Source: Acetobacteraceae bacterium
Lineage (GTDB): Bacteria > Pseudomonadota > Alphaproteobacteria > Acetobacterales > Acetobacteraceae
Reading direction: 5' to 3'
Assembly: GCA_031291725.1 (NCBI GenBank)
Contig: JARLIM010000040.1
Coordinates: 15,071-79,070, forward strand
DNA length: 64,000 nt
Below the pieces are notes generated by a model that made no database searches, was not told the origin of the DNA, and saw only the letters and a list, made by a program, of their open reading frames with translations. Made by a program: the position numbers and the translations under genes. Positions 1,821 through 25,455 of the stretch are shown one piece after another (positions within the stretch are counted from its first letter, which is position 1; each line of letters starts with the position of its first letter).

Positions 1821-1869
1821 TTGGTGTAACTGTGCTTACTCATTACCCCAGCCGGGGAATTACACCGAC
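1821..1869 (+). repeat. Core motif copy 1 (att-like)
   Basis: TTGGTGTAACTGTGCTTACTCATTACCCCAGCCGGGGAATTACACCGAC. It shares TTGG(G)TGTAA ... TTACCCCAGCCG ... GAATTACACCGAC with copies at 10166, 18269 and 25378, and lies in a gene-free gap next to xis/int. Confidence 0.6.
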
Positions 1870-1918
1870 CGTCCCCACCCCAGCCTGAAGCGGGCAAATG
1901 CCACAGGCGACGCAACAA

Positions 1919-1946
1919 ACCGCCCTGTCCGGCACGACAGGGCGGT
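1919..1946 (-). terminator. Rho-independent terminator candidate for the polB-int-xis operon
   Basis: Perfect 11-bp stem ACCGCCCTGTC / GACAGGGCGGT with a 6-nt loop. On the minus strand it is followed by TTTGTT, 17 nt downstream of the xis stop. Confidence 0.55.
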
Positions 1947-1962
1947 CCGATCGATATTGCGG

Positions 1963-2217
1963 CTAAGAAGCGGCCCTTGTGCAGAGATGTGCTGCGATGA
2001 AGGCCTCGATGTCGGAACGTCGGTAAAGGATGGCCTTCGCCGTCATCTTGACGAAGGCCGGCCCCTCGCCGGTCGCCCGCCAGCGTTCGAGCCGACGGGT
2101 GTTGACGCGCAGCAATGCGGCGGTCTCCGCCGGGGTGAGCAGCGCGGGCGGATTGGATTCCGCCACAGGCGCGTCGGCGGGGGACGCGGTGTTCTCGATG
2201 TCGTGCGGCGCGGTCAT
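1963..2217 (-). CDS. Excisionase / AlpA-type helix-turn-helix DNA-binding protein
   Basis: 84 aa. LLTPAETAALLRVNTRRLERWRATGEGPAFVKM...YRRSDIEAFI matches the excisionase-family HTH pattern. Its start overlaps the integrase stop (ATGA). Confidence 0.8.
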   Translation of the reverse strand: MTAPHDIENTASPADAPVAESNPPALLTPAETAALLRVNTRRLERWRATGEGPAFVKMTAKAILYRRSDIEAFIAAHLCTRAAS

Positions 2218-22536: not shown

Positions 22537-24012
22537 TTGACCAACTGCGCGCGCGCCGCGCGGGTCTGTGTGCTTCTTGCAGCCTTCGGTCTAGGCGCCT
22601 GCACGACGGTGCCTGACTTTCCGAACGTGCCGCTCGCGGCGGGAGCGGCGAATTCACCGCCAGCGAGCCCAATCGGCACGGATCCAGAGGCGCCATTGAT
22701 CTTGATGGCATTCTCGGGCGGGGGGTCGAGAGCGGCAGCGCTTGGGCTTGGCGTGCTGAATGAATTGGCCACCGCGGCTTACCCGGCGCACGGCAAATCG
22801 GAGTCACTGATCGATCGGGTCAAGGTGGTTTCCTCGGTGTCGGGCGGCAGCGTCGTCGCTGCCTGGTTTGGCTTCGCCGGCCCTGGGCGCCTGAATGAAC
22901 TGAAGGATAATTTCCTCAAACAGGACAACATGGCGACCTTGGAATGGCAGGCAGTAAATCCGCTCACCTTGGCCCGTCTGGCATTCAGCGGCTACACCCG
23001 CATTGATGTAATGCGCGATCTGCTCGATCGCGAGCTCTTCCACGGCGCGCGCTTCGCCGCTCTTCAAAGGCCGGGCGCGCCACTTGTGGTAATGAATGCC
23101 ACCGATATGGAATCGGGAGAGGTCTTCGCCTTCACGCCACAGCGCTTCGACGATCTGTGCTCCGATTTGAATCAGTTGCCGATCTCCGTTGCGGTCTCCG
23201 CATCGGCAGCGTTTCCGGTCGCGTTGTCGCCGATGAGCTTACGCAATTACAGCTACGAAAGCTGCAAAGGTGCTATCCCGTCGCCTGGTTGGATTGACGC
23301 AGGCCTCAGTTTCCCGTTGAACCGCTACATCAACCTCGAGGAATATAAGCGCGCGCGCTATGCGAACGCCCTCCGGAACGGTAACGACGCGTATCGTAAC
23401 GAGCATTATTTGCACCTGCTCGATGGCGGGCTCGCCGACAATCAAGGAGTGCAGTCGCTGAGCGAGGTGCTGGTTTCGCCGCACAGCGCGGCGCATATCA
23501 TCCGCGGCATCAATGCCGGCCACGCGAAGCGCATCGTCGTGATCTCGGTCAACGCACGCTCTGATGCAGACAGGGATATCGGCAAGGAAGCAGCAGTTCC
23601 CGGACTGCTGAAGGTGGTGGATACCGTGATTGGCACACCGATCGATGGCACCACCGCCTATGCTAATGCCAGCCTCCAGGATTTGGTCGCCACCCTGAAG
23701 AGCGCTGGTGAAACAGCACCGCAGGCGCCTGGGCATCCGCTGTTTGCCGGCATGCGGGTCTATGGCGTTGCCATCGATTTTGACCAGTTTATGCCAGAGC
23801 AGCACAACTTGCAGAATGTTGTGAAGAACATCGGCACGACCTGGACGCTCTCGGCCGCACAGCTACAGGCGGCGATCGATGCCGGGAAGATCCTGCTGCG
23901 CCAGCATCCTTGTTACCAGCGGCTTCTACTCGACCTGAAGGCCCGGCCTGCTGCAGGCGATGAGGCCACAATCCGTAAAGGCTGTCCGTTCGCGGGGGAC
24001 GACCCTTCCTAA
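22537..24012 (+). CDS. Patatin-like phospholipase, predicted lipoprotein
   Basis: TTG start. Signal/lipobox VCVLLAAFGLGAC. Oxyanion motif FSGGGSRAA, nucleophile elbow GVSGGS region (SSVSGGSVV), and catalytic Asp motif LLDGGLADNQG. Confidence 0.85.
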   Translation: MTNCARAARVCVLLAAFGLGACTTVPDFPNVPLAAGAANSPPASPIGTDPEAPLILMAFSGGGSRAAALGLGVLNELATAAYPAHGKSESLIDRVKVVSSVSGGSVVAAWFGFAGPGRLNELKDNFLKQDNMATLEWQAVNPLTLARLAFSGYTRIDVMRDLLDRELFHGARFAALQRPGAPLVVMNATDMESGEVFAFTPQRFDDLCSDLNQLPISVAVSASAAFPVALSPMSLRNYSYESCKGAIPSPGWIDAGLSFPLNRYINLEEYKRARYANALRNGNDAYRNEHYLHLLDGGLADNQGVQSLSEVLVSPHSAAHIIRGINAGHAKRIVVISVNARSDADRDIGKEAAVPGLLKVVDTVIGTPIDGTTAYANASLQDLVATLKSAGETAPQAPGHPLFAGMRVYGVAIDFDQFMPEQHNLQNVVKNIGTTWTLSAAQLQAAIDAGKILLRQHPCYQRLLLDLKARPAAGDEATIRKGCPFAGDDPS

Positions 24013-24371
24013 TCCAAGCATCCCTAGGCAGCAGTTCAACAATGACGCCAACCGGCTTACCGCCATTCCTAGTTGCCGGCACATCAAATGTCGACCATCA
24101 AACAACAGACAGAGCACAATTCAGAATTGATACACGTGGTTTGTCGCAGGGTTCTGATGCCGATCGACGCCTTGTGTCTTTGAACTAAAACGAGGCAGAA
24201 TGGTCACTATGCGGTGTATATTCACACCTTGGGTGGATCGGTGTGGATAAGCGCCCAAGCAGGGTCCGGGATATTTTACGAATCAACTGTATATCGCCCT
24301 GATCGGCACCGCGCTACTCGCCGATTCATATGCCGGGGCCATCAGCCCGGCCGTCCCGTGTCCATTCATCG

Positions 24372-25061
24372 TTAAGATGCAAGATGTGATGCTATTCCCC
24401 AGGCTTTCTGCAGAAGTGCCCCTTCGGCCAAGCGCTGGTCCGGTAACTTGCCGAGATCTGAGTAGGGATGGCTCGTCGGCAGAATGCAAAGGGGCTTTTC
24501 TTCGAAACTGACCTGCTCTTCCTGCCCAACGTGCAACTTCGGCAGACGTAACAAATCACCCAACAACCCCGCCGGACGGCTGCCAAGCACCACGATCAGA
24601 CGGGGCAGCAGGGTGCGGATTTGGAACGCGAGGTACTCGGCGCAGAGAGAATTATAGCTTGGGTTATTCATTGGGTGCGCCAAAGCCGAACGATCGCTGC
24701 GCAGTCCCAAGTAGGCATTTGTGTAGAATCCAAGGTGCCCGGGGATTTCTGCGTGCTTGAGGCGCTGCCGTAGCCACCGCCAAGTTGGTGGATTTTCATG
24801 CAGTCTCAGTCTCTGAAAGCCTGCTAGACTACCAAAATCATTGCCAAGAAACATTATTTCACCAGAGGGAAATGCAAAGGGGCTTGGCTGCCGCAACGCC
24901 AACTGATTATCGTCCCGCCACAGGCCATCCCCACCTGGGAAAAAGCCCTGACCAGTCAGCGTGCGCGGGAACGGTTCGAGGCCTTCGGGATAAGCTCGAC
25001 CGCCAAATCGGCCTTCTGCCTCGAGGGTGGTGAGGCGGCTAAGCAAGATGCCTATAGACAT
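24372..25061 (-). CDS. Uracil-DNA glycosylase superfamily-like protein (divergent)
   Basis: The order of motifs matches the UDG fold: IMFLGNDFGS (position of GEaPG motif A), FYTNAYLGLR, C..YL..QI..LLPRLIVVLG, and TSHPYS (HPS-type motif B). Confidence 0.55.
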   Translation of the reverse strand: MSIGILLSRLTTLEAEGRFGGRAYPEGLEPFPRTLTGQGFFPGGDGLWRDDNQLALRQPSPFAFPSGEIMFLGNDFGSLAGFQRLRLHENPPTWRWLRQRLKHAEIPGHLGFYTNAYLGLRSDRSALAHPMNNPSYNSLCAEYLAFQIRTLLPRLIVVLGSRPAGLLGDLLRLPKLHVGQEEQVSFEEKPLCILPTSHPYSDLGKLPDQRLAEGALLQKAWGIASHLAS

Positions 25062-25146
25062 ATGTCCAGTTCACTTTCGTATCGGCGGCTTAGGTTGGAT
25101 GTCAGGGGTCATGTATTGTGAACGTATCACACTGCGAAAACTCCGC

Positions 25147-25455
25147 TTACGGCATCCTCGCCAGCGGCACTGGCCTCTCCACTGTAATGACGCGGCCACG
25201 GTGGCGGGGAGCGTCAATTTCGCGAAGTTGCCGAAGATTGCGGCATCGGGCGGGGATGGCAAGGACCAGCGCGGCGGGGAGGCGTCACAAGGTGTGTGTG
25301 CAATGCATCCGATTGGCGAGAGCTGTTCGATTTGTCGCCACGGCGACATTTCTGCGGACTGGGTGGCCATCGGGACGTTGGGTGTAAGCACGCCTATCTA
25401 TTACCCCTGCCGCTGAATTACACCGACGCCTGTGATCGGCCGGGCCGAGCGCGAC
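25147..25455 (+). repeat. 309-bp direct repeat, copy B (contains core motif copy 4 at 25378-25427)
   Basis: Aligns with 18037-18345. Shared landmarks are the palindrome TTCGCGAA, the hairpin TGTCGCCACGGCGACA and the core TTGGGTGTAAGCACGCCTA...GAATTACACCGAC. Confidence 0.85.

Follow-up and report, generated by a model that had tools for sequence, protein, structure and literature searches.

This study investigated a 64,000-nt stretch of an Acetobacteraceae metagenome-assembled genome (MAG; assembly GCA_031291725.1, contig JARLIM010000040.1, positions 15,071 to 79,070 of the forward strand), hereafter referred to as the window, in which four copies of a short repeat divide a genomic island into three modules. 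The first module encodes a pipolin-like family-B DNA polymerase (PolB), a tyrosine integrase (int1), and an excisionase-like protein (Xis); the second encodes a type I restriction-modification (R-M) system; and the third encodes a mixed set of proteins, including T5orf172, patatin-like, and UDG-like members. We consider it probable that the four copies are attachment (att)-type junction repeats of a tandem accretion array, located at a non-tRNA hotspot upstream of a gene encoding a DUF2269 protein. The evidence for such an array, taken together, is circumstantial. A first-pass annotation of this DNA had proposed that the copies are att sites of the adjacent integrase and could have been left by serial accretion. 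The location of the repeats at module boundaries, their link to one integrase lineage, and the occupancy of the site in relatives agreed with this proposal, whereas neither an empty site nor a recombination junction was found.

The four copies were confirmed at the positions given in the first-pass annotation, and all lie on the plus strand. The sequence TTACCCCWGCCGNNGAATTACA occurs exactly at positions 1843, 10189, 18292, and 25401, each time on the plus strand. When as many as three mismatches were allowed, no match beyond these four copies was found on either strand of the 64 kb, and the mean number of matches in 100 dinucleotide shuffles was 0.00. An nhmmer profile built from the 85-nt repeat was run on the window and on the 7.8 kb past its left end and revealed no further copy. 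The start-to-start distances of 8346, 8103, and 7109 nt agreed with the previously reported intervals of 8.3, 8.1, and 7.1 kb. The four copies are as follows:

1795..1873, plus strand: motif copy 1, subtype A (TTGG-TGTAA, spacer GGG), at the left junction of the pipolin module
10140..10223, plus strand: motif copy 2, subtype B (TTGGGTGTAA, spacer CAG), at the junction of module 1 and the R-M module
18243..18325, plus strand: motif copy 3, subtype B (spacer CTG), at the junction of the R-M module and module 3
25352..25435, plus strand: motif copy 4, subtype B (spacer CTG), the right-most junction, approximately 45 nt upstream of the DUF2269 unit

Over the 50-nt motif, the pairwise identity among the copies was 76-82%, with 94% between copies 3 and 4, and 33 of the 50 columns were invariant. 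The centre of the motif, previously described as 13-15 nt long and freely variable, measured 13 nt in all four copies and was only semi-variable (nnnnGCnTnCnnn). The repeat is longer than the approximately 50 nt given earlier, with approximately 80-85 nt alignable in all four copies (1793-1876 and its equivalents); copies 3 and 4 are alike at 90% over approximately 300 nt (18037-18337 and 25147-25445). The heptamer TTACMCC occurs 14 times in the window against an expectation of 4.1, and 11 of these 14 belong to the within-copy set, which comprises three heptamers per copy (one inverted and two direct); the last heptamer of copy 2 reads TTACATC. Related loci retrieved in this study, designated by L numbers, fell into the same two subtypes. 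Subtype A (TTGG-TG, with a GGG or GTG spacer) comprised copy 1 and the copies in L008, L010, L020, L025, and L001 and the copy designated L005b, whereas subtype B (TTGGGTG, with a C(T/A)G spacer) comprised copies 2-4 and the copy 2 orthologues, which are present in L005 and L007. Copy 1 is kept beside the xis-int genes in L020, L008, and L010. An imperfect inverted repeat (ATTACCCC-AGCC-GGGGAAT) was present in the A-type copies only.

All four copies lie in gene-free gaps, as had been noted previously. Copies 1 and 2 are located between convergent genes (an AAA ATPase gene and xis, and the gene for a 480-aa protein and the YgjP gene, respectively), and copies 3 and 4 between divergent genes (hsdM and the T5orf172 gene, and the UDG-like gene and the DUF2269 gene, respectively). 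Because both convergent and divergent gaps are occupied, the position of the motif is independent of transcription signals. The repeats are confined to module boundaries and share one orientation regardless of the local direction of transcription. One external gene call, a 105-aa open reading frame (ORF) at 25099-25416, overlaps the sequence to the left of copy 4; this ORF had no family match and is frameshifted in copy 3. A coding role for the motif and its left flank was rejected, with no frame open in both copies and 1-nt indels within the motif, and neither Pfam nor tblastx yielded a homologue of these sequences.

To the left of copy 1 (window 1-1379; L015 12048-14519), we observed genes for a 489-aa AAA_21/AAA_15 ATPase, clipped by the window edge, and for a trypsin-like protease, in a region of low GC content (approximately 53%). 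This pair is probably another defence-type cargo pair.

The contents of the three modules were described in the first-pass annotation as replication and integration functions, a type I R-M operon, and a membrane/patatin/UDG set, and the Pfam searches confirmed this description. The pipolin backbone proposed there was also recognized as a pipolin-like PolB-int-xis arrangement, in which the integrase carries PF13356 and PF00589, as expected for the P4-like enzyme that had been named, and an HTH_17 excisionase adjoins copy 1. The genes are arranged as follows:

1963..2217, minus strand: excisionase-like HTH_17 protein (84 aa), beside copy 1
2214..3545, minus strand: tyrosine integrase int1 (443 aa), with the P4-type arm-binding domain PF13356
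3538..6552, minus strand: family-B DNA polymerase (1004 aa), piPolB-like, PF03175
6619..9908, both strands: rest of module 1, ORFs of 158 and 370 aa (minus) and 480 aa (plus), with no family match
10299..18022, minus strand: module 2, YgjP-like protein, HsdR, HsdS, and HsdM (type I R-M), with no recombinase
18495..25061, no single strand assigned: module 3, T5orf172/MUG113 protein, several unknown ORFs, patatin-like phospholipase, and UDG-superfamily protein, with no recombinase

The PolB protein matched PF03175 at 32 bits, which is above the cut-off, and showed a weak match (33% identity over 179 aa) to ORFs on Pseudosulfitobacter plasmids; no match was found in NCBIfam or PDB. Pseudosulfitobacter is listed for plasmid pipolins in the 2024 pipolin survey. 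Rhodovastum atsumiense and metagenomic relatives, including L025, carry this PolB-int-xis trio too, and their PolB proteins are 57-60% identical in amino acid sequence to that of the window. The window's own integrase is 100% identical to an NCBI MAG protein encoded on an 81-kb contig. Because this trio recurs and PolB weakly matches the Pseudosulfitobacter plasmid ORFs, module 1 is regarded as a pipolin-like element. No recombinase domain was found in modules 2 and 3, and the UDG-superfamily assignment in module 3 is weak. Since only module 1 encodes recombination functions, modules 2 and 3 are read as integrase-less, att-flanked cargo. The GC content differed among the modules and was 66.7% in the pipolin core, 54.3% in the 480-aa ORF, 60.8% in the R-M module, 57.9% in module 3, 67.3% in the DUF2269 gene, and 63.6% in the distal chromosome.

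To determine how the motif is distributed, we scanned genome contigs totalling 596 Gb from 185,579 species representatives. The pattern was found in one other genome only, the MAG containing L001 and L002, in which the 25-nt core is identical to that of copy 1 and lies approximately 465 nt from a 5'-truncated homologue of int1 (69% amino acid identity over residues 167-383). An initial placement of the L001 core directly upstream of an integrase start was rejected; the ORF on which it was based is spurious, and the integrase is the truncated remnant 465 nt away. A relaxed pattern yielded 12 metagenome matches, of which 8 had unrelated flanks, a number that fits the approximately 10-30 chance matches that we roughly estimate for a collection of this size. 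The metagenome loci with full-motif matches (L005, L007, L008, and L010), together with L020, which was reached through its integrase, were 87-91% identical to the pipolin or R-M module of the window; in all five, the context is a pipolin and int1 is 91-93% identical in amino acid sequence. In the more diverged L025/L026 (int1 60% identical), a variant motif (TTACCCCAACCCGGGAATTACACCGACGG) is located at the right end of the pipolin, at the junction between the pipolin and DUF2269. L024, which carries a second integrase (int#2) only, lacks the canonical motif and shows weak resemblance at most. Searches of plasmid DNA and viral motif and protein scans revealed no relatives of the motif, its flanking arms, or the integrase; PolB had distant plasmid matches only.

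The right flank of the array is conserved and consists of the following unit:

25479..26038, plus strand: DUF2269 unit, approximately 100 nt of conserved upstream sequence and a 155-aa gene

In three configurations (the window, L005b, and L025), this DUF2269 unit comes next after the right-most copy, at a distance of approximately 30-45 nt. On its left side, DUF2269 in L022 adjoins housekeeping genes (ffh-rpsP-rimM-trmD-rplS-leuCDB) followed by PRC; DUF2269 is therefore chromosomal. L022 was also considered as a clean empty site and was rejected, as the motif is absent and the sequence matches the window only from codon 15 of DUF2269, with a different upstream region. The target suggested in the first-pass annotation, the 3' end of a tRNA, tmRNA, or small RNA gene, was not borne out; a search of the window and 17 related loci detected no tRNA or tmRNA, and the array abuts a protein gene, DUF2269.

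The number of modules upstream of DUF2269, a point that the first-pass annotation had raised for checking, differs among relatives. The window contains three modules and four copies. L025 contains one module, in the order int#2 module, int1-PolB with two ORFs, one motif, and DUF2269. L005 contains an extra copy, in the order pipolin, L005b (6204-6267), DUF2269 fragment, palindrome and arm, copy 2, and R-M. The fragment in L005 (6288-6617) comprises the upstream region and 80 codons of the 5' part of DUF2269 and is 82% identical to window positions 25479-25812. No site-specific duplication was seen at its junction, which makes a deletion scar its probable origin. The right end of the L005 pipolin is A-type (L005b); its left end lies off the contig and is A-type in the siblings L008 and L010. 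Window positions 7484-10027 stand where L005 has L005b and the DUF2269 fragment, that is, this part of module 1 is exchanged for other sequence in L005. Judging from these alignments, module 1 of the window may represent a pipolin that a deletion joined to what is left of another module. The tandem of pipolin, copy 2, and R-M module is kept at 88-91% identity in L005 and L007; it was therefore inherited or transferred as a block and not recently assembled.

The same neighbourhood contains a further recombination module. This int#2 module, which encodes an xis-like HTH_17 protein, proteins of approximately 100-137 aa and approximately 208 aa, int#2 (50% amino acid identity to int1), and a 100-aa protein, was observed at L015 14984-18863 (to the left of the window), L025 35-3412, L024 1848-5087, and L021 11214-14250. 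Three diverged relatives have it beside PolB-int1, and L024 has it in the absence of PolB; the hotspot therefore hosts two integrase systems. Complete DUF2269 genes occur twice on one contig, 22 kb apart (L027 83-550 and L024 10001-10468), and flank an int#2 island. A second pair (L028 218-685 and about 1697-2366) flanks a UDG-like gene, whose product was considered as a relative of the UDG-like protein of the window and found to be unrelated. Each of the paired DUF2269 genes is preceded by the same sequence of approximately 100 nt. The DUF2269 unit may be a repeat or a target of the int#2 islands.

We further analyzed the sequences to the left of the motif. These arms and the palindromes that they contain are as follows:

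1608..1794, plus strand: left arm of copy 1, kept in 89%-identical relatives, whose sequence further to the left is unrelated
10027..10139, plus strand: left arm of copy 2, starting at the palindrome; in L005, this block comes after the DUF2269 fragment
10033..10048: palindrome TGTCGCCGCGGCGACA in the copy 2 arm
18037..18242, plus strand: left arm of copy 3 and upstream region of hsdM, 90% identical to the copy 4 arm
18224..18239: palindrome TGTCGCCACGGCGACA in the copy 3 arm, followed by T6 (terminator-like on the plus strand)
25147..25351, plus strand: left arm of copy 4 and upstream region of the UDG-like gene, 90% identical to the copy 3 arm
25333..25348: palindrome TGTCGCCACGGCGACA in the copy 4 arm

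The 16-nt palindrome TGTCGCCNNGGCGACA had three matches in the window against 0.02 expected, located 30-118 nt to the left of copies 2-4. It was also found alone at L015 14806-14821, approximately 1.4 kb to the left of the window start and upstream of a gene for a 215-aa HTH_17 protein. This palindrome may be an operator or a terminator common to the island modules. The breakpoints with relatives at the arm ends and the 90% identity between the arms of modules 2 and 3 indicate that the right-end arm is kept despite different cargo. Such conservation fits a role of the arms as functional parts of the putative att sites. Between copy 2 and its L005 orthologue, the motif has diverged by 8% and the non-coding flanks by 25% (Fisher p = 0.008). 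The comparison of copy 1 with L020 showed the same trend, which was not significant, and the changes fell within the 13-nt centre.

A separate observation concerns the arms of copies 3 and 4 (18037-18268 and 25147-25377), between which a single phase of three accounts for 17 of the 26 substitutions. The corrected p value of this periodicity is about 0.0025; the pattern was noticed post hoc. It occurs despite the lack of an open frame and a 1-nt indel between the copies, and the GC content is lowest in that phase.

On the basis of these findings, we propose that integrative elements with related att sites would have been inserted one after another upstream of DUF2269. Each insertion would have duplicated the core and left hybrid internal sites; of the four copies, the outer ones would be attL and attR, and the two inner ones hybrid sites. 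The conserved 25-28 nt, TTACCCCAGCC-NNN-GAATTACACC(GAC), would hold the core-binding and crossover region of the integrase; this stretch carries three TTACMCC heptamers, of which one is inverted. The P-arm, namely, the right end of the module on the left of a copy, would correspond to the 110-250 nt preceding that copy. Some elements would have lost their recombination genes and become cargo resembling cis-mobilizable elements (CIMEs), represented here by the R-M module and the T5orf172/patatin/UDG-like module. We infer that int1 would bind and recombine the four sites, and int1 and Xis may still excise module 1 or composite units.

Several results weigh against this proposal. No unoccupied attB was recovered among the related loci examined. 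The first-pass annotation had envisaged circles or deletions joining the copies; all 10 contigs examined, which carry an identical integrase or DUF2269 (seven places listed), contained the same junctions, and no circle or deletion junction was found in them, which is a weak negative. The motif and obvious direct repeats were absent from the retrieved DNA of L021 and of Rhodovastum L018, whose integrases are 56-59% identical to int1, and no convincing direct repeats flank the pipolins of L021, L018, and L025/L026. The 16 kb left of the L025 pipolin contained no second motif. A k-mer search among the arms revealed no shared k-mers that could represent arm-type sites. Of the window copies, only copy 1 shares the subtype of the pipolin itself. 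Because there are two sequence subtypes, copies 2-4 may belong to another, related integrase that is now absent, and recombination between copies 1 and 2 may be inefficient. Similarity between the window and its 89%-identical relatives ends at 1608 and 10027, that is, 190 and 140 nt to the left of copies 1 and 2, and not at the motif. The P-arm assignment explains these breakpoints without proving itself.

The first-pass annotation had also raised a more dynamic possibility, in which cargo cassettes are excised and swapped independently in an integron-like manner. In such an active platform, all sites would be good substrates of int1 and Xis, and the modules would be excised, lost, captured, and reshuffled independently and often. 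The integrase-less modules 2 and 3 do lie between att-like repeats and share a right-end arm of 250 nt at 90% identity, as if built on one chassis; module number varies among relatives; and a variable defence cargo, swapped with other elements, has been described for pipolins (PMC11551731). Nevertheless, the conservation of the pipolin-copy 2-R-M tandem in L005 and L007 indicates inheritance as a block, no alternative junctions occurred among the 10 same-strain contigs, and copies 2-4 differ in subtype from the pipolin's own ends. In addition, sites of the copy 3/4 type and module 3 were not found in any other context, and attC-like hairpins and an IntI-type integrase are lacking. We therefore regard an active cassette platform as unlikely. 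Similarly low is the likelihood that we assign to a common chassis, in which an att core and an approximately 250-nt arm with a palindromic operator or terminator would allow int and xis of the pipolin to serve integrase-less defence modules, with entire defence operons captured, excised, and exchanged as cassettes at a non-tRNA hotspot, the whole being nested in a second integrase system with the DUF2269 unit as its repeat.

The repeat could also be a module-end block without a role in integration, acting as a regulatory element, terminator, or insulator or as a homology patch for RecA-dependent exchange of cargo. In favour of this reading, hsdM and the UDG-like gene have the arms of copies 3 and 4, respectively, as their upstream regions; the palindrome of the copy 2-4 arms also occurs upstream of the HTH_17 gene to the left of the window and is terminator-like at 18224; and the breakpoints with relatives coincide with the arm ends and not with the motif. 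However, a promoter role is impossible for copies 1 and 2, which are flanked by convergent genes, and the palindrome is separable from the motif, being absent near copy 1 and present alone in L015. The motif, and not the arm, is common to all copies and to the diverged relatives, and it co-occurs with one integrase lineage. These results render a module-end block quite improbable.

A shared 3' end of a non-coding RNA family had been offered as a further alternative, and a structured hairpin formed by GGTGTAA and TTACACC was considered with it. All four window copies contain this 7-bp inverted repeat, and the minimum free energy fold of copy 1 uses it; the pairing is, however, not thermodynamically significant and is not kept in diverged copies. 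The fold energies were no better than those of shuffled sequences (z = -0.5, +0.7, -1.2, and +0.4), and the structures predicted for six copies differed from one another. The 5' arm GGTGTAA is changed to GGTGCAA in L005b and to GGTGGAA in L025 without compensation and is absent in L001, and one-nucleotide indels occur within the motif. No Rfam family matched the window at the gathering threshold, and none matched at E<=10 around copy 4. Near copy 1, only a weak and unrelated int-alpA match was obtained (1571-1615, minus strand, 15 bits, E = 2.2), which is located in the arm to the left of copy 1 and is probably a chance match. The non-coding RNA alternative was accordingly not sustained, and we consider it very improbable.

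A generic dispersed repeat of the repetitive extragenic palindromic (REP) or miniature inverted-repeat transposable element (MITE) type has a nearly negligible probability: the motif is short, intergenic, and contains an inverted repeat, but it occurs in only four copies in 64 kb, in one orientation and always at module joints, with no copy in 38 kb on the right side or 7.8 kb on the left side, in one MAG only (beside an int1 remnant) across the genomes of 185,579 species, and without viral or plasmid matches, and the genome-wide REP-like scatter considered in the first-pass annotation was thus not seen in the window, the 7.8 kb to its left, or these genomes. An integron attC array was rejected, as the integrase scored 44.9 bits against an integron-integrase cut-off of 265 bits, the motif has no conserved fold, and the units are operons of 7-8 kb.

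The proposed accretion array was compared with known systems. Tandem accretion with integrase-less, att-flanked modules is established for tandems of ICEs (integrative conjugative elements) and IMEs (integrative mobilizable elements), and cis-mobilization of CIMEs has been shown experimentally (PMC5704250). In common with the ICESt1/CIME system of Streptococcus thermophilus (PMC5704250), the window contains several att-like repeats in the same orientation, one module with int and xis, neighbouring modules without recombination genes that nonetheless have att-like ends, and signs of decay or deletion between modules. The two differ in that the site in the window is intergenic and upstream of DUF2269 rather than at the 3' end of a tRNA or protein gene, conjugation and mobilization genes are absent, and the integrase module encodes PolB. 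Whereas cis-mobilization has been shown for CIMEs, the sites described here are putative.

The ssrA islands of Dehalococcoides (PMC3146451) likewise form chains of cargo islands between short direct repeats, and many of them lack an integration module and are CIME-like; as in the window, approximately 85 nt around each repeat is extra-conserved. Their repeat, however, is a 20-bp copy of the tmRNA 3' end and is used with a serine recombinase, whereas the array in the window involves no RNA gene, a P4-type tyrosine integrase, and a repeat of 50-85 nt. In terms of its working, the array would be closest to the CIME/ICE accretion arrays and the Dehalococcoides ssrA chains.

At tRNA-Leu, pipolins of Escherichia coli have att-like direct repeats, and three att repeats occur in some of these pipolins (PMC7385651, PMC9710591, PMC11551731), and tandem accretion is stated as expected for pipolins (PMC11551731). 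The element in the window resembles them in its core of PolB, tyrosine recombinase, and excisionase; in its UDG-like and R-M/defence cargo; and in its flanking direct repeats, with extra repeats where another element uses the same site. Unlike those elements, it lies at a site without a tRNA or tmRNA, and the de novo repeat validation of ExplorePipolin would reject its repeats. The alphaproteobacterial pipolins of the 2024 survey have mainly large serine recombinases at yifB, or IntP2/IntTn916, and a P4-type int-xis pair at a DUF2269-adjacent site is not described there. Four repeats are present here instead of two or three, and the intervening cargo modules lack an integrase. The likeness to integrons comprises ordered cargo units, a recurring site in one orientation, conserved ends, and a freer centre; the differences are the lack of an IntI-type integrase and of attI/Pc, the size of the units (multi-gene operons of 7-8 kb with their own promoters), and a motif without a conserved attC-type hairpin.

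The sequence to the right of the array was also surveyed. Adjoining DUF2269 (26046-33681) are genes for a PIN_3 protein, a 188-aa HTH_17 protein, an FRG-domain protein (about 51% GC), a 782-aa unknown protein, and a Fic/DOC protein. This side is variable in relatives as well, in which type I R-M, DUF4011 helicase, DNA methylase, and BREX-like genes were observed. Farther to the right, a 2182-aa ORF (39589-46137) consists of many degenerate 57- and 27-nt repeats and is adhesin- or autotransporter-like, and approximately ten tandem repeats of 102 nt (61104-62321) lie inside a 770-aa ORF on the minus strand.

The mechanism proposed here is well precedented; the value of the finding would lie in extending known biology to a new element and host group and not in a new principle. 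Boundaries of this type would be missed by ExplorePipolin, which would class such elements as incomplete. For in vitro work, the locus provides a small, defined set of substrates, consisting of the four sites in their two subtypes together with one integrase and one Xis. Should the sites prove functional, they would constitute a concrete case of a pipolin gaining defence cargo through site-specific accretion of att-flanked modules at a non-tRNA site and not through unspecified exchange.

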